Source of the DNA: Thermodesulfobacteriota bacterium
GTDB taxonomy: Bacteria > Desulfobacterota_D > UBA1144 > Nemesobacterales > Nemesobacteraceae
Length of the DNA stretch: 64,000 bases
Assembly: GCA_965204795.1 (NCBI GenBank)
Contig: OZ242012.1
Coordinates: 206,650 to 270,649 of the forward strand
Direction: 5' to 3'
The first letter of the stretch is position 1, and every line of letters starts with the position of its first letter. A model generated the notes under the pieces. It worked only from the letters and a program-made list of their open reading frames with translations, was not told the origin of the DNA and ran no database searches. A program made the position numbers and the translations under genes. Positions 3,454 through 15,809 of the stretch are shown here, piece by piece.

Positions 3454-4053
3454 GTGTCCGTAAGCGTGAAAGTGATGAAGCGCCCCCGCCTTTCCTTCTG
3501 GGAGAAGCTCTACCTGCCCCAGGTGCTGAGAGGGCTCGCCATCACCCTTAGGCACATAACGCGCTTTCGGCCCATAACCGTGAAGTATCCCGAAGAGGTG
3601 AAGGCCCTTCCCGAAAACTACAGGGGGCTTCACGTGATGCCGGGAGACGACGAGGGGCGCATAAGGTGCGTGGCGTGCAAGCTCTGCGAAATCGCGTGTC
3701 CCACCCAGGCGATCTCCATAGTGTCGGAACCGGCGGACGACTACGGCGTCGAGAGGCGTCCCAGGGTGTACAACATAGACTTCATGCGCTGCGTTTTCTG
3801 CGGGTTCTGCGTGGAGGCGTGTCCCTGCGACGCGCTTCGGATGGGAATGAAGTACGAACTCGCGTCCTACAGCCGCGCGGGGCTCGTTCACACCAAGGAG
3901 GTTTTCTTCGACCCCGACGTGAAGAGCCTGGCGCCCAGGGACAACGCGAACTTTCTCTACGGCATGGGACTGGGAGAGATACTGGATTCTTCCGAAGAAG
4001 TCTCCGAAGCGAAGAAGCTTGACGGCACCTATTCCGTGAAGCGGAGTTCCTGA
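3454..4053 (+). CDS. nuoI: NuoI-like 2x[4Fe-4S] ferredoxin subunit (NADH-quinone oxidoreductase subunit I family), orphan
   Basis: Two CxxCxxCxxxCP motifs (CVACKLCEIACP and CVFCGFCVEACP) with NuoI-like spacing and an N-terminal region YPEE. GTG start at 3454; ATG at 3475 is an alternative. No other nuo genes are adjacent. Confidence 0.8.
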   Translation: MSVSVKVMKRPRLSFWEKLYLPQVLRGLAITLRHITRFRPITVKYPEEVKALPENYRGLHVMPGDDEGRIRCVACKLCEIACPTQAISIVSEPADDYGVERRPRVYNIDFMRCVFCGFCVEACPCDALRMGMKYELASYSRAGLVHTKEVFFDPDVKSLAPRDNANFLYGMGLGEILDSSEEVSEAKKLDGTYSVKRSS

Positions 4054-4107
4054 AGCCTTCCTCGGCTGATTTTTTGACGACTTCCGCGAAACTCTTTGTT
4101 TTAACCG

Positions 4108-4130
4108 TTACGGAAATTTGACATTTCCGT
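4108..4130 (+). promoter_or_regulatory. near-perfect palindrome TTACGGAAAT-ttgac-ATTTCCGTCA overlapping a TTGACA -35 box upstream of higB; candidate HigA operator
   Basis: ACGGAAAT (4110-4117) and ATTTCCGT (4123-4130) are exact reverse complements. TTGACA lies at 4118-4123, about 80 bp upstream of the higB ATG, in an AT-rich intergenic region. Confidence 0.4.
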
Positions 4131-4205
4131 CAAGTGCGTTTAACTTTGCGGAAAGTTTAGGGAGCAATGTACTTCAGTTCTATTTGAGAGCGTTGAAGTT
4201 GAGTT

Positions 4206-4499
4206 ATGCGGATCATATCCAAAAAGACGTTAAGGAAGTTCTGGGAGCGTTACCCTGACGCCAAAAAGGGTCTTGACAGTTGGTATCATGAAGTTAAGAG
4301 AGAAAACTGGGACAGTCCGGCCAAAGTTAAAGCCAGGTACAACGACGCCAGGATTATTGGAGGGAATCGCGTGGTTTTCAAGATCAACGGCAATAAATAC
4401 AGATTGGTGGTGGAGATTACGTATAAATACCGCATTGTCTACATATGTTTTGTTGGTACCCATGCGGAGTATGACTCTATAAACGTAAAGGAGGTGTAA
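4206..4499 (+). CDS. higB: type II toxin HigB family (RelE-fold mRNA interferase)
   Basis: 97 aa. ...VFKINGNKYRLVVEITYKYRIVYICFVGTHAEYDSI matches the HigB_toxin signature (..GN.YRLI..I.....I.FI.THAEYD). Lies in a low-GC pocket. Confidence 0.85.
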   Translation: MRIISKKTLRKFWERYPDAKKGLDSWYHEVKRENWDSPAKVKARYNDARIIGGNRVVFKINGNKYRLVVEITYKYRIVYICFVGTHAEYDSINVKEV

Positions 4500-4501
4500 A
4501 A

Positions 4502-5722
4502 ATGGCCGATATTAAACCGATTCGCACCGAAGCGGATTATGAGGCCGCGCTGGCGCGCATCAGAAAGATTTTTCATTCCGACCTTGGAACTCCCGAGGGC
4601 GATGAGCTTGATGTTCTGGCCGACTTGGTTGAACGGTATGAAGACAGACATGAAGTGGTCGACTGTCCCGACCCCGTCGACGCGATCAAGTTCCGCATGG
4701 AGCAGGCGGGGCTGAAGCAGCGCGACCTGATTCCTTACGTGGGAAGTCGTGCCAAGGTTTCGGAGGTTCTTTCCGGCAAGCGTGCTATAACGATGTCCAT
4801 GGCGCGCGCGCTGCACGAACATCTGGGCATTCCTGCGGATGTTCTGCTTCGGAAACCGGGCGGGACGTTTGAGAATCCGTTGAGTGATATTCAATGGAGC
4901 CGATTTCCGCTCAAGGAAATGGCGAAGCGTAAATGGATTCCCGATGCTCCCGATCTTGAGGCGCACGCGGAAAAATCCGTCGGCGAAATGATGAGAAAGG
5001 CCGGCGGATGGGACGAGACGCGCGCCGCCGCGCTGTTCAGAAAAAACGATCACCGGTATGTCAACTCCAAAACGGATTCTTACGCTCTTAAGGCCTGGTG
5101 CCTGCAGGTCTTGGTGACCGCAACCCAGAATCCCCCGCCGGCAAACTACAGGTCGGGCACGGTCACTCCGGATTTTCTCAATAAAGTCGCCCGCATCAGC
5201 CGGTCGGAAAACGGCCCGCGGCTCGCGAAAGAGTTCTTGGAAAAGCACGGGATTTCCCTGGTGACTCTGAAGCATTTACCGAGAACTTATCTGGACGGGG
5301 CCGCCTTGCGTCTGGGCGACGACCGACCGGTGATCGGGCTTACCCTGCGTCACGACCGCATAGACAGTTTCTGGTTCTGCCTGCTGCACGAGCTCGCGCA
5401 TCTGGGACTTCACATGGACAAAGACGACGGGGAAGCTTTCGTCGACGATCTGACTCTGCGCGAAACCGGAGCGGCGGCGCGGGATTCGAAAGAAGCGCAG
5501 GCGGACCAATGGGCGGAAGAAGCGCTGATACCGGAATCGGTCTGGGAAACAAGCGAGGCGCGACTGCGACCCACCGCCATGGCCGTTATCGACCTGGCGA
5601 ATTTTCTGAATATTCATCCGGCTATAGTCGCGGGCAGGGTGCGCCGCGAACGGGACAATTACCGCCTGCTCTCCCAGTTCGTCGGAAACGGCATGATCAG
5701 GCCGCAGTTCGATTTTTCCTGA
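4502..5722 (+). CDS. higA: HigA-family HTH antitoxin fused to an ImmA/IrrE (M78) zinc-metallopeptidase domain
   Basis: Perfect SD AAGGAGGTG sits 7 nt upstream. The N-terminal ~115 aa match the canonical HigA motifs (IKPIRTEADYEAALARI...GTPEGDELDVLADLVERYEDRH...PDPVDAIKFRMEQAGLKQRDL...SRAKVSEVLSGKRAITMSMARALHEHLGIPADVLL). The C-terminal ~250 aa carry HEXXH (LLHELAHLGLH) plus a downstream E, typical of the COG2856 ImmA/IrrE family. It starts 3 nt after the higB stop. Confidence 0.85.
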   Translation: MADIKPIRTEADYEAALARIRKIFHSDLGTPEGDELDVLADLVERYEDRHEVVDCPDPVDAIKFRMEQAGLKQRDLIPYVGSRAKVSEVLSGKRAITMSMARALHEHLGIPADVLLRKPGGTFENPLSDIQWSRFPLKEMAKRKWIPDAPDLEAHAEKSVGEMMRKAGGWDETRAAALFRKNDHRYVNSKTDSYALKAWCLQVLVTATQNPPPANYRSGTVTPDFLNKVARISRSENGPRLAKEFLEKHGISLVTLKHLPRTYLDGAALRLGDDRPVIGLTLRHDRIDSFWFCLLHELAHLGLHMDKDDGEAFVDDLTLRETGAAARDSKEAQADQWAEEALIPESVWETSEARLRPTAMAVIDLANFLNIHPAIVAGRVRRERDNYRLLSQFVGNGMIRPQFDFS

Positions 5723-5725
5723 CGG

Positions 5726-7576
5726 CTAAAGCCAGTCTTCTCCGCCGAAGATGTCGGCTTCCTCGTGGCGAAACCCGGGTTCCGGGTCGCTGTTGCGAAA
5801 TCCCCTGAACTGCAGGAGTCCCGAAACGGCGGACTTTATCTGCCTTCTCTCGGCCACCAGGTGAACCCCGCCGTTGTCGTCGTAGAACTCCGAAGACATT
5901 ATCTTCGGGTCGACCCCCCGGCCGCCGCTCGTGAGCTTCACCACCCTGTCTCCGGCAAACGCTATGGTCGCCTTTTTCTCCGCTATTATGAAATCCCCCT
6001 GCACGGCGTAGCTCGCGAGCGCCCCTCCGGTCGTCGGGTGTCCCAGAATGGAGATGTTCGGAAGCCCGTGCTCCCGAAGTCTCATCAGCGCCTCTATGGT
6101 CTTGGCCATCTGGTAGAGCGCGACGGTTCCTTCCTGCATGCGCGCTCCTCCGCTCACGGTGACCGTTATCAGGGGAAGCCTGTGCTCCACGGCGTAGCTC
6201 ACGACCATGTTCATCTTCTCCCCGAAAACGCTGCTCATCGACCCGCCCATGAACCGGAAGTCGCAGACGGCCACCGCCACGGGCATTGCGAACATCGTGC
6301 CGTAGCCCGTGACCAGGGAGTCCCTGGAGTCGGTCTTTCCGGCGAGCTTCTGCCTGGAGGACGCGTAGTTGAAAAACTTGTACGCGGGGTCTATGTCCTC
6401 CACGGCCAGCTCGGGCTCTATTTCGTGAAACGACTCCCCGTCGAGCAGGAAGTCGAGGTAGTCGTCGGAGCTCAGCGCCTCGGGCCTGTGGCAGTAGGGA
6501 CAGGAGGAGTTGTTGGCGTGAAGCTCTTCCTTGGTGAGCTGGCTCTTGCAGCCGGGTCGGATCGTCTTGCCCTGGCCGTCCTTTTCGTCGTTGCAGAAGT
6601 GGGGCTCGGAGCCGTAGATGGCTATCTGCATCTCCGATATGTCGTGGCTCTGCCTGCTTCCGCTGAAGTAGTTGGGAAGCCAGGCCTTTATCTTTTTCGA
6701 TATTCCCTCGTAGATTCTCCGCTGCTTCTTTACCCGCCCGCACCTTCTTATCTTTTCCCGAAGCTCCTCCGAGAGGCGCCTCGTCTCCGAGTTCTCGAGC
6801 TCCCGCACGGCCGCGGCGAGCGACTTTCCCAGGCTTTTCAGCGTCTGGGTCATGTAGCCGGGTTTTCCGAGCGGCGCCTCCTTCACTATCTCGTCTATTA
6901 TTCCGTAGCGCTTCATGTGCACGGCGGTGGGCTGGAGCACCTCGAGGGCCTCGGCCACCTTGTCCGCGCTTCGAAACAGTATCGCCGAGCACCCCTCGGC
7001 GGTTATGACGGAGTATTCGGCGCGCGACAGCATGAGCCTCCTGTGCCCGAGCTGTATGGCTATGGCGCCCCCGCTTCCCCCGAGTCCCAGCACCGTGGTC
7101 ACGGTCCTCGTGCGAAGCGAGATCATCTTCGACTGGCAGTAGGAGATGAGCCACGACTGGAGCTTCTCGGCCGAGTACTCGTAGGGATCCCCTCCCACGG
7201 TGTCGACGAACGTGAAGAGCGTGAGGCCGTTTCGCTCCGCGTAGTCCATCATGCACCACGAAAGCCCGTACCCGTCGGCCTTCACCATTCCGTAGTTGAG
7301 CGCCGCCCTTTCCTTTTCGCCCGAGGGCGTCTGCTGGGCTATCACGGCCGAGAGCGTTCCCGTGGGCTTGAACCTCGCCGTTCCCACTATCACCGAGGGG
7401 TCGTTGACGAACTCTATCTTTTTTCCCGAGGGGGCGTGGATGAAGCTTCTGAATCCAGAAAGCTCGTTCCAGGGAGTGAAGTCCGTGAAAAGCGCCGAGA
7501 GCACGTGCTTCGACTTCACGCGGTCGTAGGACTTGGCCTCTTCGTGGGACTGGAGGATTTTGGGGGTCTTCGCCAT
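5726..7576 (-). CDS. accA-accD: acetyl-CoA carboxylase carboxyltransferase, fused alpha (AccA) and beta (AccD) subunits
   Basis: 616 aa. The N-terminal half matches AccA (FVDTVGGDPY...LGLGGSGGAIAIQLGHRRLMLSRAEYSVITAEGCSAILFRSADK). The C-terminal half matches AccD, with a zinc-ribbon CPYCHRPE, then FAMPVAVAVCDFRFMGGSMSSV and SGGARMQEGTVALYQMAKT. Confidence 0.88.
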   Translation of the reverse strand: MAKTPKILQSHEEAKSYDRVKSKHVLSALFTDFTPWNELSGFRSFIHAPSGKKIEFVNDPSVIVGTARFKPTGTLSAVIAQQTPSGEKERAALNYGMVKADGYGLSWCMMDYAERNGLTLFTFVDTVGGDPYEYSAEKLQSWLISYCQSKMISLRTRTVTTVLGLGGSGGAIAIQLGHRRLMLSRAEYSVITAEGCSAILFRSADKVAEALEVLQPTAVHMKRYGIIDEIVKEAPLGKPGYMTQTLKSLGKSLAAAVRELENSETRRLSEELREKIRRCGRVKKQRRIYEGISKKIKAWLPNYFSGSRQSHDISEMQIAIYGSEPHFCNDEKDGQGKTIRPGCKSQLTKEELHANNSSCPYCHRPEALSSDDYLDFLLDGESFHEIEPELAVEDIDPAYKFFNYASSRQKLAGKTDSRDSLVTGYGTMFAMPVAVAVCDFRFMGGSMSSVFGEKMNMVVSYAVEHRLPLITVTVSGGARMQEGTVALYQMAKTIEALMRLREHGLPNISILGHPTTGGALASYAVQGDFIIAEKKATIAFAGDRVVKLTSGGRGVDPKIMSSEFYDDNGGVHLVAERRQIKSAVSGLLQFRGFRNSDPEPGFRHEEADIFGGEDWL

Positions 7577-7721: not shown

Positions 7722-8045
7722 TTACGCCGTGAAAGACTGTCCGCAGCCGCACGAACCGGTCGCGTTGGGGTTTTCGATGGCGAATCCCTTTCCGTTGAGA
7801 CCGTCTTTGAAGTCGAGCACGGCTCCGTCGAGATATGTGTAGCTGAGTTCGTCTATGGCGACTTGCACGCCTCCCGATTCGATCATCCTGTCCGAGTCCC
7901 CGGTCTCGTCGTCAAATCCCATCTCGTAGGAAAACCCGGAGCAGCCCCCGGGCACGATTCTCACCCGAAGAAACGCGTTGTCGAAATCGTCTTCGGCAAG
8001 CAGCCTTTTAATTTCGCTTACGGCCTTGGGAGTTACGGAAAACAT
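7722..8045 (-). CDS. erpA: iron-sulfur cluster insertion protein ErpA/IscA family
   Basis: MFSVTPKAVSEIKRLL...VRIVPGGCSGFSYEMGFDDE...GSCGCGQSF, a Cys-X(n)-Cys-Gly-Cys A-type carrier. GGAGG sits upstream of the ATG at 8045. The longer track ORF is an N-terminal extension artefact. Confidence 0.88.
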   Translation of the reverse strand: MFSVTPKAVSEIKRLLAEDDFDNAFLRVRIVPGGCSGFSYEMGFDDETGDSDRMIESGGVQVAIDELSYTYLDGAVLDFKDGLNGKGFAIENPNATGSCGCGQSFTA

Positions 8046-8336
8046 CTCTTTCCTGCCTCCTCTCCATTGTTTTTCTTCCCCTGCCCCTGTAGGACTAAAA
8101 TACAGTTCCGGCGGGGGATTGTCAAAGCGGTGTCGGTTCAGACGCCTCAGGATGCTTTTCCGCTTCCACGGGCCGCCGCATGGTGTATGTCGTGAACGAT
8201 TGAATCTGCCCGGCAATCATGCGTCGGATTCCGCCGTGACGGCAAGCCGTTGACAAGACGGACGGTTATCGACCATACTTAAGAACGATTACGGTTGCGC
8301 GGGAGAAACTCTTCTTGAGTAACCAGGGGGATTGGC

Positions 8337-8525
8337 ATGAGCAAAAAGGAGAAAGTCCAGGACAACTATCTTGAAACGTTGGAAAAGGTTAAACAGCAGT
8401 ATCAAGAATATATCGAGGTCAGCAAAATTTACGAACTGCCCACGTTTGAAGAAGAAAAACCGATAGAATACCAGCCCCCTAGCCCCGAACATCCACTGAC
8501 GACCAATACCTTCGACGTAAAGTAA
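8337..8525 (+). CDS. hypothetical small acidic protein (62 aa), first gene of a low-GC two-gene cassette
   Basis: AGGGGGA lies 6 nt upstream of the ATG. The product MSKKEKVQDNYLETLEKVKQQYQEYIEVSKIYELPTFEEEKPIEYQPPSPEHP... is E/K-rich with no TM segment. Local GC is markedly below the window average. The stop is 1 nt before the next start. Confidence 0.5.
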   Translation: MSKKEKVQDNYLETLEKVKQQYQEYIEVSKIYELPTFEEEKPIEYQPPSPEHPLTTNTFDVK

Positions 8526-8526
8526 A

Positions 8527-9480
8527 ATGGCTTCTTGGAGTGAACTGGCAAAGGCTCTTGCCAATCAGGGAAATGTTGTCAACTGGCTCTACGGTTCTCT
8601 GGCGGGTCGGCTGGGGGAAGTATCGAAGCTTCGCAAAGGAACTTCCGTCATTTTCTACGCCTCCGCTTTTCTGCAGAAAAAAAACTCCACAAACGTGTCA
8701 ATCGACCGTGAGGACATCAACGGTTTTATGGACGCAATATACAAAGCTCAAACCGATAATGGCCTTACCTTGATACTTCACACGCCTGGCGGGGACATTT
8801 ACGCCGTTGAGAGCATAGTTGATTATTTACACGCCAAATTCTCCAAGATTGAAGTCGTAGTGCCGTACTTGTCCATGTCCGGCGGGGCCATGATGAGTCT
8901 TGCTAGCGACCTTGTGATACTAGGCAAGCAAAGCCAGCTTGGTCCAATTGATCCTCAGTTTTCCGCGGGAAACAAATCGTATTCCGCCAGAGCGATTGAG
9001 GAGGGATTCAACAATGCGAAAAAAGATATAGAGAACGATACCAGTCTGGCTCACCTGTGGGCTCCTATCCTGCAAAGCATGGGACCTTCGCTCATCACGG
9101 AATCTCAGAGAGCCTTGTCTTACAGCAAGGAATTAGTAAAGAAATGGCTCAAAGAGCGAATGTTCAAGGATGAAGACGAGAAGGAAAGAGAAAGAATCAT
9201 CAACGACATAGCGGGATATTTTAACGCTGAGAAAAAAGACGGCGACGAGGGAACAAAACTCGGGCAAGTTCACGTTCACGGGCAGAGGATAGGATTTCAA
9301 AAGCTCGAAGAACTTGGAGTAAGGGTGGAAAAGCTTGAAAAAAGCCAACCGTTGCAGACCGCCGTATTGACTGCATACCATTTGATGACTCTGATTTTTG
9401 AGAGGTCTCCTTCCCTGAAATTCATATCCAGCGACCAAGGCACTATGTGGTCTAAACAGCAACAAATTCGTACGCAATGA
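8527..9480 (+). CDS. ClpP/crotonase-fold serine peptidase of the SDH (S49-like, 'serine dehydrogenase proteinase') family
   Basis: 317 aa. ...GLTLILHTPGGDIYAVESIVDYLHAKFSKIEVVVPYLSMSGGAMMSLASDLVILGKQSQLGPIDPQ shows the SppA/ClpP-like oxyanion and Ser motif arrangement typical of PF01972. It sits in a low-GC island between erpA and the M24 peptidase. Confidence 0.65.
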   Translation: MASWSELAKALANQGNVVNWLYGSLAGRLGEVSKLRKGTSVIFYASAFLQKKNSTNVSIDREDINGFMDAIYKAQTDNGLTLILHTPGGDIYAVESIVDYLHAKFSKIEVVVPYLSMSGGAMMSLASDLVILGKQSQLGPIDPQFSAGNKSYSARAIEEGFNNAKKDIENDTSLAHLWAPILQSMGPSLITESQRALSYSKELVKKWLKERMFKDEDEKERERIINDIAGYFNAEKKDGDEGTKLGQVHVHGQRIGFQKLEELGVRVEKLEKSQPLQTAVLTAYHLMTLIFERSPSLKFISSDQGTMWSKQQQIRTQ

Positions 9481-9580
9481 CAAATTCTTGTAACGCCAAA
9501 CACTTTCGCATAGTCAAAAAAATTAAGAGAATTCTTGGTTCTCGCTGATTCGCGAAAAATCCACAGCGCAATATTTCCAC

Positions 9581-10711
9581 ATGAGCAGGACCGCCTACCT
9601 CATAATCGATTCGAGCGAAGCCAACTCGGACCTTTACCACAGAACGGGATTCTTCGTTCCGGACCCCGTCATATTCTTCGAACGCGACGGAAAGACCACG
9701 CTCGTTCTGAGCGACCTCGAGCTTGAAAGGGGCGAAAAGCGGGGCGCCGCCGACGAGATAGTCTCCTTCTCGCGCTGCGTCGCCGGGCTTCGCGGCAAGG
9801 GAAACAGGTCTCCCTCGACGGCGGAGGTCGCCGCCGCGGTTCTTCAGGAAAGGGGAATAAGAAGCCTCGTCGTCCAGAGAACCTTTCCCGTCTTTTTCGC
9901 CGACGCTCTCCGCGAGGCCGGTTTTTCCGTGAAGACCGCGAAGACGCATTTTCTTTTCGAGGACCGTCTCGTAAAATCCCCCCGGGAGGTCTCGTTCATA
10001 AAAAAGGCGCTTTCCGTCACGGCGCAGGCGATGAGACGCGCGGTCTCGCTCGTCTCGTCCTCGACTCCGAAGGGAGGACTTCTTTTTCTCGGGAAAAAGC
10101 CTCTCACCTCCGAGACGGTGAGGTCGGAAATCGACTCCTTTCTCGCCGCCCGGGGCTACCTCGCCTCGAACACCATAGTGGCGGGAGGGGTTCAGGGCTC
10201 GATGCCCCACGAGAAGGGCTCGGGACCGCTTCGGGCCGGGTGGCCCGTCGTGATGGACATATTTCCCCGCTCCCAGGAAAACGGCTACTTCGGCGACATG
10301 ACGAGAACCGTGGTCAGGGGGGAGCCTTCGCGGGAGCTTCTGCGGATGTACGACGCGGTGCTCGGGGGTCAGAAAACGGCGCTTTCGATGATAAGGGACG
10401 GCGCGAGGTCGAGGGACGTGCACGCGGCGGTGGAAGAGTTTTTCTCCGGGCGGGGTTTCGAAACGGGAGTTTCGGACTCGGGAAAGCCCCGGGGGTTCAT
10501 TCACTCCACCGGACACGGCCTCGGCCTCGACATCCACGAGCCGCCGAGGATTGGTCCGGGAAAGGAGATTCTCAGGGAGGGAAACGTCGTCACGGTGGAG
10601 CCCGGGCTTTACTACGAGAGTCTCGGGGGAGTGAGGATAGAGGACGTGGTGGTGGTCGGGCGCGGGGGGTGCGTTAACCTCACGAGATGCTCGAAGAGAT
10701 TCAGGGTGTAG
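9581..10711 (+). CDS. M24 family Xaa-Pro aminopeptidase / dipeptidase
   Basis: 376 aa. The pita-bread-fold metal ligands fall in the contexts ...GDMTRTV..., ...[13 protein letters not shown]... and ...VVTVEPGLY...GGVRIED. Confidence 0.85.
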
Positions 10712-12336: not shown

Positions 12337-12450
12337 CTTTTTCTCCCGTCCGACCGGCGCGGGATTTTTTTCTCGGGGAAAAGGGCGCGGAAACGGACAT
12401 GATGAAATGATGACGGACGGCGGGAATTTTTCAAATTTTGGTACACGTCA

Positions 12451-12478
12451 TTGAAACTGTTCATTTATGGAGTAAAAT
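12451..12478 (+). promoter_or_regulatory. sigma70-like promoter (TTGAAA-N16-TAAAAT) upstream of the Panacea-domain gene
   Basis: TTGAAA at 12451-12456, a 16-nt spacer, then TAAAAT at 12473-12478. AAAAGGGAGA RBS precedes the ATG at 12500. Confidence 0.35.
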
Positions 12479-12499
12479 TTAAAAGGGAGATTTTATATA

Positions 12500-13018
12500 A
12501 TGCGGGAAAGCATTTGCAAAGCGGCACACATCGCGAATTTGATCCTCAACAGAGCGGATGCGGAAGGGCGAGATATAAGCATTTTGAAACTGCTCAAGCT
12601 GGTCTACATATTTTTCGGCTGGACAAGCGCCTTTCATACCAACCGCCCCGACCTCTTTTCAGACCGCATAGAAGCTTGGAAATACGGTCCCGTGATTCCC
12701 TCGCTTTATTACGAATTGCGCAGATTCGGCAGAAAGCCTATTAAAAGGGATCGCGCGCTTGTCTACGACCCTTCGGCCGATGCATCTCCCAGAGTGGCGC
12801 TGGAAAGCGAAATTGATGATAAAGAAGTACTTAAAACTCTGGAACTTCTCTGGAACTCGTATAAGGATGCCCCGGCGGAGCACATAGTCGCCCTGACACA
12901 TCAGGAAGATACTCCATGGCGGAAAGTTTATGACGAGAAAAAATATGGTACAGAGATTCCGAAGAATCTTATTCGGGATTACTACAAAGACTTGTATGAA
13001 AGGTTTGCTGCTAATTGA
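12500..13018 (+). CDS. Panacea-domain (DUF4065, SocA/PanA-type) antitoxin-like protein
   Basis: ILKLLKLVYIFFGWTSAFHTNRPDLFSDRIEAWKYGPVIPSLYYELRRFG fits the DUF4065 signature (KLqKLlYyaqgw...pLf.d.ieAWk.GPVvp.lY). Low-GC island. The stop overlaps the next start. Confidence 0.8.
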   Translation: MRESICKAAHIANLILNRADAEGRDISILKLLKLVYIFFGWTSAFHTNRPDLFSDRIEAWKYGPVIPSLYYELRRFGRKPIKRDRALVYDPSADASPRVALESEIDDKEVLKTLELLWNSYKDAPAEHIVALTHQEDTPWRKVYDEKKYGTEIPKNLIRDYYKDLYERFAAN

Positions 13019-13362
13019 TTGAAGGTAATAATAAAAGAAGACTGGTTGCCCGAGCTCTGCGGGAATTGATAGAAGAGCAGAGCGAGCAAAATGAATCGCA
13101 CTACGAGGGTCTTGCCGATGAGCGCTACAGGGAAGAAACTGCCGTAATAAAGCAGGAACGGGAATTACAAAAAAGAGTTGCGCGCTGGGTGATGTGGGTG
13201 GTTTCTGTGTGGCTTTTTTTCATAGCCGTCTTGTTGGTTTGCGTCGGGAGTTCTCAGCTCAATTACTCCGACGGCGTTCTTATCGCCTTGCTTGCGACGA
13301 CCACCGCCAACATCATAGGCTTGGCGTATTTCATGGCGAAGGGATTTTTCCCAAACAAGTAG
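13015..13362 (+). CDS. small two-TM membrane protein, candidate PanT-type toxin (115 aa)
   Basis: TTG start at 13015 overlaps the TGA stop of the Panacea gene (TTGA), indicating translational coupling. The charged N-terminus (RRLVARALRELIEEQSEQNESHYEGLADERYREE) is followed by two hydrophobic helices (WVMWVVSVWLFFIAVLLVCV and VLIALLATTTANIIGLAYFMA). Confidence 0.55.
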   Translation: MIEGNNKRRLVARALRELIEEQSEQNESHYEGLADERYREETAVIKQERELQKRVARWVMWVVSVWLFFIAVLLVCVGSSQLNYSDGVLIALLATTTANIIGLAYFMAKGFFPNK

Positions 13363-13664
13363 CTTTTTGCTGTTGACTTCAATCTCCCGTTTCAGGGGCC
13401 TACACAAGGGTGGCAGGTTGTTGCGTTGGGTCGTTTCGCGGAGAAAAGCGGTTTTTTCAGGACGGCGCGTTCGACGCGGGCTTGAGAACGAAATTTCGGA
13501 AAAAACGGAGAAATCACCGCTTCCCGCGCGGAGATTCCGAGCCGGGTGGGATTGATTTTTCCTGTTCCATCCTTTATTATTGGTCGCATGTTTGCCGGCG
13601 GGGTCGCCGGACGGAAATGCCGCTCCGCTCCCGCAGGCCCTTTCCGGAAAGGAGGTATGCAAAG

Positions 13665-14594: not shown

Positions 14595-14603
14595 GCCCGC
14601 GCG

Positions 14604-15809
14604 TCAGGAAAGCAGTTTTCCCATGAGTTTCCATCCCCGCGCCTCGAAGACTCCGGTCGACCTCGCGCAGTCCTCGGTGTAGACCAGGGACTTTCGCTCT
14701 CCGGCGTCCGCGTCCGAGGAGTCGAGTATGGCGAAGGGCACGGGTTCGTTCACGTGGGTTCTCACGTCCACCGGAGTCGGGTGATCCGACATGACGAGCA
14801 CCCTGTATTCGCCGAACTCCCTTATCCCCTCGAGCGCCGGGCCCACCACCCTGAAGTCGAAGTCCTCGACCGCGCGCACCTTGAGTCCCGCGTCTCCCAC
14901 GTGCCCGGTTTCGTCGGTGGCCTCTATGTGTATCATCGCCAGGTCGACCCGGCGAAGCGACTCCAGCGCGTACTCCACCTTTCCCTCGTAGTTGGTGTCG
15001 AGATATCCCGTGGCCCCGGGAACGTCGATCACTTCCATTCCCGCGAACTTTCCTATTCCCTTCACCAGGTCGACGGCCGACACGACCGACCCGGAAATTC
15101 CGTAAAGCTCCCGCAGGGAGGGCATCTCGGGCCTGGTTCCCTGGCCCCACAGCCATATGGAGTCCGCCGTGTTTTTTCCCGACGCCCTTCTCTTGCCGTT
15201 CACGGGATGGTCCGCCAGGACGTCCTGGGATTTTTCCATGAGGGCCACGAGCTTTTCCGAACCGTCTCCCGAGGGAAGCCACCGTCCCGTCTCGCTTCCC
15301 GGAATGTCGTGGGGCGGAGTGGTTCGCACGTCGGGGTTTCCTCCGCGCCAGAGCAGAAGGTGGCGGTAGCTCACCCCCTGGCTCAGGGAGAACTCCTCGC
15401 AGTCGATTTCCTTCTTCAGGCTCTCGACTATCTCTCCCGCCTCCTCGTCCGTTATGTGTCCCGCGCTGTAGTCTTCGAGCAGCGTTCTTCCCCGTCTTCG
15501 CCGGAACGTGACGAGGTTGCAGCGCACGGCCACGTCCCCCTCGCCGAGCTCCACTCCTATGTTCGCCGCCTCGAGGGGAGCGCGGCCCGTGTAGTAGAGC
15601 GTCGGGTCGTAGCCGAGCACGGAGAGGTTTCCGACGTCGCTTCCCGGCGGAAGGGAGTCGGGGATGGTCTTGGCCGTTCCGAACGCCCGCGCGTTTCGGG
15701 CCACGAAGTCGAGGTTCGGGGTGCGGGCGGCCTCGAGAGGGGTCTTTCCCCCGAGACTCTGGAGCTTGTGGTCGGGCATGCCGTCGCCCTGGAGGATCAC
15801 GTATTTCAC
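14604..15809 (-). CDS. apgM: cofactor-independent phosphoglycerate mutase, archaeal type (ApgM family)
   Basis: 401 aa. MKYVILQGDGMPD...LDPGSDVGNLSVLGYDP and a metal-binding ...ATDETGH... context are characteristic of COG3635. Confidence 0.82.
   Translation of the reverse strand: MKYVILQGDGMPDHKLQSLGGKTPLEAARTPNLDFVARNARAFGTAKTIPDSLPPGSDVGNLSVLGYDPTLYYTGRAPLEAANIGVELGEGDVAVRCNLVTFRRRRGRTLLEDYSAGHITDEEAGEIVESLKKEIDCEEFSLSQGVSYRHLLLWRGGNPDVRTTPPHDIPGSETGRWLPSGDGSEKLVALMEKSQDVLADHPVNGKRRASGKNTADSIWLWGQGTRPEMPSLRELYGISGSVVSAVDLVKGIGKFAGMEVIDVPGATGYLDTNYEGKVEYALESLRRVDLAMIHIEATDETGHVGDAGLKVRAVEDFDFRVVGPALEGIREFGEYRVLVMSDHPTPVDVRTHVNEPVPFAILDSSDADAGERKSLVYTEDCARSTGVFEARGWKLMGKLLS

Follow-up and report, generated by a model that had tools for sequence, protein, structure and literature searches.

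In a 64-kb stretch of DNA from a Thermodesulfobacteriota bacterium (contig OZ242012.1; the whole stretch is called the window, and all coordinates refer to it), two adjacent genes form a compact cassette that pairs a small acidic protein with a serine protease of the SDH family, and the context of this pair suggests a role in defence against phages. The first gene (8337-8525, + strand), an open reading frame (ORF) for 62 amino acids, encodes a soluble acidic protein (pI 4.75; 13 aspartate plus glutamate versus 8 lysine plus arginine residues) with no membrane segment and with the tail motif PPSPEHPLTTNT. The second (8527-9480, +) encodes a soluble ClpP-fold serine protease of 317 amino acids that matches PF01972. 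The TAA stop codon of the former and the ATG start codon of the latter are 1 nt apart. A ribosome-binding site, GGGGGA (8326-8331, +), precedes the small ORF, and a promoter scan found a sigma-70-like site, TTGACA-18-CATACT, at 8250-8279 (+), in a stretch that is kept in a related contig, L085. Pfam matches identify an Fe-S_biosyn gene (ErpA/IscA-type; 7722-8054, -) on the left flank of the cassette and a Peptidase_M24 gene (9581-10711, +) on the right, the latter followed on the + strand by a MazG gene. GC content is 46.3% in the cassette, against 60.8% and 61.9% in these flanking core genes and 61.5% in the whole window. The first-pass annotation of this DNA had described a low-GC two-gene island between erpA and M24, with an acidic 62-residue protein 1 nt ahead of a 317-residue protease, and both ORFs are as it described them.

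The cassette is a true insertion of about 1.4 kb (approximately 8129-9560), because its GC fraction is 0.46 against 0.61 and because the corresponding site is empty in two related metagenome contigs (L101 and L102). These contigs carry the acetyl-CoA carboxylase (ACC) carboxyltransferase, erpA, M24 and MazG genes in this order, without the SDH gene and with erpA and M24 separated by only 144-165 nt; their identity to the window is 80-81% in ACC, 86-87% in erpA and 75-76% in M24. Similarity breaks off at about 8128, in the promoter of erpA (- strand), and returns at about 9560-9570. The insert thus begins with a non-coding part (8129-8336, +), whose left limit, set where similarity to L101 and L102 ends, is good to about ±20 nt, and closes with a non-coding end (9481-9560, +) in which a terminator scan of the + strand detected no intrinsic terminator. 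None of the 80 M24 loci has an SDH gene. As the first-pass annotation had remarked, neither an integrase nor direct repeats flank the cassette: no integrase gene was found among the adjoining ORFs, and a repeat scan returned no meaningful direct or inverted repeats or att-like sites at the insert. Contig L085, with about 86% DNA identity to the window, has the same order of erpA, small ORF, protease and M24, and its cassette also differs in composition from its flanks (GC 47% versus 61-63%). The two proteins of the pair are 89% and 86% identical between L085 and the window and those of the neighbouring genes 83-96%; the insert was therefore inherited vertically within this lineage. Among the nearest relatives, which are 58-70% identical to the window protease and are referred to as the close clade (the next tier reaches at most 48%), cassette GC in 39 loci is 0.444 ± 0.038, always under that of the flanks (0.560 ± 0.054). 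The module is a horizontally acquired, self-contained two-gene unit.

The small ORF is a real gene that is homologous across the family. Of 80 genomic loci fetched with the protease gene, out of 289 relatives found, all 80 have a small ORF of like design immediately before the protease (approximately 72 by a first automatic pass, the remainder by manual reading), mostly with a gap of -1 to +17 nt. When a hidden Markov model (HMM) built from the close clade only was run against 5,572 stop-to-stop peptides (35-140 amino acids, six frames) from 40 distant loci, ranks 1 to 23 all went to the ORF adjoining the protease, 11 of these with E<0.01. Differences among 40 close-clade small ORFs fall on codon positions 1/2/3 in the proportions 16652/11078/26811, a skew that is a coding signature. 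Independent gene callers predict the small protein in 28 database clusters, none of which has a Pfam domain, and the ORF also precedes the protease in 10 IMG/VR contigs and several phages and prophages. In every locus inspected, the small ORF is thus conserved alongside the peptidase, a condition on which the first-pass annotation had made its reading depend, and an unannotatable 62-residue ORF proves to be a real gene and part of the system, a lesson for annotation.

The AlphaFold model of the small protein consists of one helix (residues 2-31, pLDDT 94) followed by a disordered tail. The helix has the consensus DYLxTLExVKKQYQQYxEVS, more generally A..xY..Y, and is followed by a variable linker and a C-terminal motif, which reads PPSxEHPLTTNTxRxK in the close clade and P-[LM]-[TSG]-[LIV]-x-[LIVF] elsewhere. 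Residues Y11, Y22, Y25, P53, L54 and T55 are invariant, and the most conserved residues lie in the predicted disordered tail, which is beta-prone; conservation within a tail modelled as disordered is what a motif folding on its partner would typically show. Similar tails end the small proteins of a Pseudomonas phage-plasmid (..TTVTTNTISARNA), a Klebsiella lambdoid prophage (..MSTGTLIHKQN), the Mu-like Shewanella phage MuM16-1 (..ANFTSIRI) and Porphyromonas prophages (..THTTSMIR). One relative, P0150 (408 amino acids), is a natural head-to-tail fusion of a complete small protein (ending ..NPLTDNTHRFE) with the protease. The conserved positions of P0150 are partly altered (H251 to R), and it may be a decaying copy that has lost its stop codon. 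Another relative, P0220, may contain the helix part of the small protein in fused form.

The protease matches the Pfam family PF01972 (SDH_protease) over residues 59-172 with E=1.5e-19 and 70.5 bits (cut-off 31.3), so that the earlier SDH/PF01972-like assignment stands. Its score against the NCBIfam equivalog NF047768 (SDH family Clp fold serine proteinase) is 85.2 bits, under the cut-off of 250, and the Escherichia coli, Klebsiella and Pseudomonas copies likewise remain under that cut-off, including an E. coli Nissle protein that bears the RefSeq name "SDH family Clp fold serine proteinase" and scores only 85.5 bits. From these scores, the window protease belongs to a distinct, phrog_11747-like subfamily, named after its best PHROG match (phrog_11747, a family without assigned function; E=1.2e-66 over residues 36-308). 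This subfamily comprises about 366 clusters at E<=1e-30; an MxSWxELL motif is conserved at its N-terminus, and the small partner is obligate. Relatives of the protease were found in 1,627 database clusters at E<=1e-3, and a profile search of 1.84 billion representatives returned 366 at E<=1e-30, 1,699 at E<=1e-10 and 4,839 at E<=1e-3. In one relative, P0083 (373 amino acids), about 28 residues of the helical linker region are repeated in tandem (..RWLNQRMFSDSSNENERKSKANS / ..RWLKQRMFSDSSNENKRESKANA).

Comparison of the predicted model with known folds places the protease in the ClpP/crotonase type, nearest to ClpP, NfeD 1510-N and SppA, with a full-length match to a giant-virus "serine dehydrogenase proteinase". 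No solved structure of the family was found in a PDB sequence search, in which NfeD 1510-N was the best match (E=0.09). In an alignment of 29 members (65% mean identity), H85, G88, G89 and D90 (HTPGGD), S118 (MSGG), D142 (GPIDPQ), H176, H249, H251 and H285 are invariant. Phage and prophage relatives, inspected by eye, retain H85, S118, D142, H251 and H285 and lack H176, whose invariance is confined to the close clade. The conserved residues follow the order S118, D142, H251/H285, with H85 inside the HTPGG motif, and the ASAG serine of the NfeD 1510-N protease, the nucleophile of that enzyme, is the residue aligned with S118. Ser118 is the putative nucleophile, Asp142 a putative partner, and H251 or H285 the candidate catalytic histidine.

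The nearest folds raise the possibility of a housekeeping or processing protease of the SppA/NfeD type, which would serve protein quality control or mature the small protein into a peptide. ClpP-fold proteases do handle C-terminal tails: 1510-N cuts stomatin, the product of its partner gene in the operon, in the C-terminal region, and the title of PDB entry 4kwb describes SppA with C-termini bound in its active sites. Against these precedents, the protease has no signal peptide or membrane segment (maximum hydropathy 1.33), no stomatin/SPFH, transporter or modification genes are linked to it in the neighbourhoods, and the gene is absent from the same site in related genomes and decayed in a strain with 99% identity; we regard a housekeeping role as very unlikely. 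Assignment to the individual families was rejected on score cut-offs and context. ClpP scores 16.5 versus 20.2 bits for PF00574 and 12 versus 228 bits for PRK12553, and no linked AAA+ unfoldase is evident among the neighbours in the 80 loci, where only restriction-modification (RM) genes recur. SppA scores 24 versus 155 bits (TIGR00706), and position 134 is K or R, so there is no invariant lysine for a Ser-Lys dyad. NfeD scores 27 versus 40 bits (NfeD1b_N), and the window protease has no membrane anchor.

All-against-all clustering of the neighbours in the 80 loci showed that only the two genes are conserved and that their flanks vary from locus to locus, with RM genes as the sole recurrent neighbours; the homologues are not tied to a housekeeping operon, which agrees with the accessory character proposed in the first-pass annotation. 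Within ±6 kb (RM annotations having been propagated by BLAST across the loci), an RM-like gene is present in 23 of the 80, upstream on the same strand in 22 and downstream in none, at a distance of about 0 to about 250 nt from the small ORF. The upstream genes include a Eco57I/MmeI-like enzyme of about 1,340 amino acids and HsdM-HsdS fusions with HsdR, as well as Eco57I-type (type IIG), Mrr+ResIII, type ISP, HsdR, N6_N4-methylase-fusion and MmeI systems, and the polarity holds across at least seven unrelated architectures, in close and distant clades. In counts of Pfam and PADLOC matches among upstream neighbours, RM domains come first even without the nine known RM genes. In the non-RM loci, the neighbours of the pair are unrelated housekeeping genes (for example PGI, GCV_T and M16). 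The polarity of the RM association is the most intriguing unexplained fact about this family, and the link to the 3' end of many kinds of RM operon hints at functional coupling or layered immunity. Two of the loci have features of their own. A Flavobacteriales metagenome-assembled genome (MAG; L017) carries two divergent SDH proteases 1 kb apart (4016-4981, -, and 6001-6933, +, in that locus) downstream of a type IIG RM gene, the second copy matching PF01972 with E=5e-22. In L004, an insertion sequence with an rve integrase (4340-5248 of that locus) interrupts the HsdM-S gene that immediately precedes the pair, so that a C-terminal HsdS fragment (5486-5743) adjoins the module.

This polarity could mean that the pair is an accessory of RM systems, either as a protease and adaptor that control the level of restriction subunits or as a second-line effector released by phage anti-restriction proteins. 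Both roles have parallels: ClpXP controls EcoKI restriction-subunit levels in restriction alleviation, and PrrC is held silent by EcoprrI and released by T4 Stp. The 22 co-oriented upstream RM genes, their short distances and the many enzyme types speak for an accessory role. However, about 70% of loci, the window included, and all phage copies have no adjacent RM system, so the pair must be capable of functioning independently; several of the linked loci share ancestry (clusters c2 and c3), and the 3' ends of RM operons could be mere insertion hotspots. We therefore hold a dedicated RM accessory to be an unlikely explanation. An equally tentative extension is that the pair is a portable RM add-on, with a ClpP-fold protease and a small adaptor or sensor placed behind at least seven unrelated architectures, at their 3' end. 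If so, it might degrade restriction subunits in an unmethylated new host, a built-in alleviation that would make RM systems transferable between phyla, or alternatively act as a back-up that fires when phage anti-restriction proteins disable the RM system; the close clade would then mark habitat-wide exchange of equipped RM systems among apparent sponge symbionts.

The pair is also found on phages and prophages, where it occupies moron-type positions. In Porphyromonas phages it lies beside HicAB, between adaptor and neck genes. The Mu-like Shewanella phage has it between its lysis genes and the late regulator C, Gordonia phage BeeGee behind a minor tail gene, a 44-kb Pseudomonas element behind the integrase, and the Klebsiella lambdoid prophage between replication genes and the Q antiterminator region. 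A lambdoid prophage of E. coli Nissle 1917 (L182; NZ_CP022686.1, 9133-10251) carries it between antiterminator Q and the holin. In Nissle 1917 the module is followed by a DNA methyltransferase gene, and the RefSeq start of the protease apparently lies too far downstream, as the conserved MPNW... start comes right after the stop of the small ORF. Homologues on phages, prophages and plasmids are only 29-36% identical to the window protease. The E. coli form, found with the Enterobacter copy, occurs in 133 of 5,426 complete genomes and shares 36% identity with the window protein (E=2e-56); blastn of the E. coli genomes with the Klebsiella copy gave no match. A remnant of phage head morphogenesis, with a ClpP-like prohead protease and a scaffold fragment, might be suspected from weak matches to NF045542 (22 bits) and to phrog_53 and phrog_1684 (E of about 0.04-0.1). 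The NF045542 score lies far under its cut-off of 120 bits, however, the best PHROG match remains phrog_11747, to which no function is assigned, no linkage to capsid, portal or terminase genes is evident in the 80 loci, and the phage copies lie outside the head module or stand as an extra gene; we consider this origin highly improbable, and it was rejected along with the SppA, ClpP and NfeD assignments.

The 38 closest genomic relatives of the protease, at 58-69% identity, come from MAGs that bear the labels Dadabacteria, Latescibacterota, Binatia, Dehalococcoidia, Nitrospirales, Terriglobia, Thermodesulfobacteriota, Pseudomonadales, Flavobacteriales, Caldilineaceae, Poriferihabitaceae and others. 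Taxon names including Poriferihabitaceae and Mycalebacterium, together with the literature on Dadabacteria in sponges, suggest that this close clade, spread over about a dozen phyla, is drawn from a pool of sponge symbionts. A subfamily that crosses phyla in this way would be a useful marker of gene flow in an apparent sponge-symbiont community.

Two further pairs of defence-related genes lie near the cassette in the window. The first, 2.6 kb upstream, is PD-Lambda-2-like and consists of a HigB-type A protein of 97 amino acids (4206-4499, +; PADLOC E=8e-43) and a B protein of 406 amino acids with HTH_3 and Peptidase_M78 domains (4502-5722, +; E=3.7e-144). A low-GC patch (4000-4600) covers the A gene and the first part of the B gene, and the pair is also present in L084 (described below) and L085. 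The second, 3 kb downstream, comprises a SocA/Panacea antitoxin gene (12500-13018, +; PF13274, with NF047745 at 96 bits) and, overlapping it by 4 nt, an ORF of 115 amino acids (13015-13362, +) that has a strong membrane segment (hydropathy 2.87) and is probably a membrane toxin neutralised by the Panacea protein. The SocA island of about 1 kb (12440-13431) is low in GC and absent from L084, and L085 has a diverged SocA copy in a slightly different place. Between the PD-Lambda-2-like pair and erpA, the left neighbour is the ACC carboxyltransferase gene (5726-7576, -; Pfam), which encodes a single protein of 616 amino acids with an ACCA domain (14-280) ahead of a Carboxyl_trans domain (398-576), that is, with alpha and beta subunits fused; this arrangement is kept in L084, L085, L101 and L102.

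The module is dispensable and often lost, as seen from the decay of the protease in 8 of 82 copies, including one in a strain that is 99% identical to the window. This strain is represented by L084, an ENA contig of 183 kb that matches the window over about 19 kb; its small ORF is intact and its protease gene is dead, with an A8 to A7 frameshift at codons 50-52 and, as a second lesion, the loss of 654 bp (window 8839-9492) between two copies of ACGCCAAA. The A8 homopolymer (8677-8684, +; codons Q50-K51-K52) is a recurrent site of frameshifts: the QKK codons form a run of A6-A8 in the family, and three of the five frameshifted copies (L084, L025 and L032) are broken there, while L033 and L074 carry frameshifts elsewhere in the protease. 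The tract could be a slippage-prone on/off site or the source of homopolymer assembly errors, and some of the homopolymer frameshifts could be such errors. Three further copies have stop codons, at W207 (L006), at Q158 (L020) and at codon 146 (L048). All eight recently inactivated proteases stand beside an intact small ORF, and no broken small ORF was found. The protease gene is about five times longer, however, and the bias is not significant (p of about 0.24), so the asymmetry was dropped as evidence of a toxin-like protease. L084 also differs from the window by an extra 660 bp (14658-15317 of the contig, at about window 14600-14608), with a Cys-rich ORF of 172 amino acids on the minus strand for which no Pfam match was found. 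Three indels (these 660 bp, the SocA island and the protease deletion) separate the two sequences within 20 kb.

Loss of the protease from copies that keep the small gene would be expected of a toxin-antitoxin-like addiction module without a dedicated phage role, in which the protease would be a toxin degrading essential host proteins and the small acidic protein a labile antitoxin blocking it; post-segregational killing would then keep the pair and stabilise the neighbouring DNA, such as RM operons and prophages. The layout is classic for such modules, translation of the larger gene being coupled to that of a small gene ahead of it, and the pair is mobile, low in GC and patchily distributed; moreover, it adjoins HicAB in the Porphyromonas phages and shares the window with the PD-Lambda-2-like (HigB-like) and SocA modules. 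Yet there is no match to a toxin-antitoxin family in Pfam, NCBIfam, PADLOC or PHROG, the small protein is predicted as one helix and a tail without a DNA-binding fold, and the asymmetry of decay is not significant. We give pure addiction a low probability, comparable to that of an RM accessory. Many toxin-antitoxin pairs are themselves defence systems, so addiction overlaps with a defence function and does not exclude it.

Taken together, these observations make it reasonably probable that the pair is an anti-phage defence module of the "hypothetical protein + SDH_sah protease" type, with its function read from its context. The pair is an obligate unit of two genes, accessory and spread horizontally, in the kind of context usual for anti-phage systems. 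Support comes from the pairing in 80 of 80 loci, the RM link in 22 of 80, the moron sites in phages and the PD-Lambda-2 and SocA pairs nearby, and with these data and the true insertion the suggestion of a defence- or toxin-antitoxin-like accessory module made in the first-pass annotation is supported. Several points weigh against a defence function. The protease-only decay does not differ significantly from expectation for the longer gene; shared ancestry of the c2 and c3 loci partly inflates the RM association; the window cassette itself sits between housekeeping genes with no RM genes beside it; the inhibitor model set out below was built from sequence features only; and a PADLOC v2 scan of both proteins and of their enterobacterial and phage homologues gave no match, a negative that is uninformative because the PADLOC v2 library does not contain this family.

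As a defence module, the small cytoplasmic protein and the protease would be made from their own promoter by coupled translation and would act as a pair. The small protein would bind the protease through its helix, and its conserved beta-prone C-terminal tail (...HPLTTNTxRxK) would be laid in the substrate groove beside Ser118, where it might act as a pseudo-substrate lid or as a cleavable sensor. Infection would remove, titrate or cleave the small protein, and the freed protease would then cut phage or host proteins, leading to abortive infection. The tail-in-groove arrangement is suggested by the coupling of the genes, the universal small partner, its conserved, disordered, beta-prone tail, the natural fusion and the C-terminal-tail precedents among ClpP-fold proteases. 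The analysis shows the insertion, the obligate pairing, the homology of the small protein within the family, the fold with its conserved catalytic-type residues and the mobile, RM-linked and prophage settings; that the two proteins bind, which of them regulates the other, what is cut and that the module defends against phages are inferred. Few anti-phage systems are as poorly understood as the protease-based ones, and we know of no published mechanism for the "HP + SDH" system; the conserved disordered tail points to tail-in-groove regulation of a ClpP-fold protease as one that may apply.

Among known systems, type II toxin-antitoxin modules resemble the pair in having a small upstream gene coupled to that of a larger enzyme and in being mobile, patchy and prone to loss; the small protein of the window differs in its predicted absence of a DNA-binding antitoxin fold and in matching no known family. 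PrrC-EcoprrI is similar in that the pair directly follows co-oriented RM genes in 22 of 80 loci, but here the effector is a protease rather than an anticodon nuclease, and most copies of the window family stand alone. NfeD 1510-N, with stomatin, and SppA are likewise ClpP-fold serine proteases that bind a C-terminal tail, whereas the window protease has no membrane anchor, no invariant lysine and no linked stomatin, and its similarity to them is marginal (E=0.09). With PF01972 and NF047768 it shares the ClpP fold, and its conserved Ser, Asp and candidate catalytic His residues come in that order; it passes the Pfam cut-off and, in contrast, falls short of that of NF047768 (85 versus 250 bits).

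The closest counterpart by name and architecture, the features compared here, is the DefenseFinder system FS_HP_SDH_sah, which also consists of two adjacent co-oriented genes, for a small protein without a family followed by a PF01972 protease. The system reportedly goes back to the validated systems encoded on phage-inducible chromosomal islands (PICIs) described by Fillol-Salom and colleagues in Cell in 2022 (185:3248). The relatives of the window pair reside on phages, prophages and other mobile DNA, while the window copy is a bare chromosomal cassette of 1.4 kb, in a Dadabacteria-like genome, that is not on a PICI or prophage. Of two other defence systems and studies consulted, the tail assembly inhibition (Tai) system, from the laboratory of the same PICI work, involves no protease, and a paper on metagenomic selection of defence genes makes no mention of the SDH protease family. 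The system name FS_HP_SDH_sah appears, for the protease gene, in PMC13532340, the one relevant mention that literature searches on the family and the system brought up. Its existence shows that the first-pass annotation, correct about the family of the peptidase, went too far in calling that family essentially uncharacterised, and the novelty of the module is lower than implied. By architecture alone, the window pair is a probable new and distant member of the FS_HP_SDH_sah kind. The class of system is already catalogued, and the window family offers as new leads a small partner that is universal and ends in a characteristic motif, a polar link with RM genes and a subfamily that crosses phyla.

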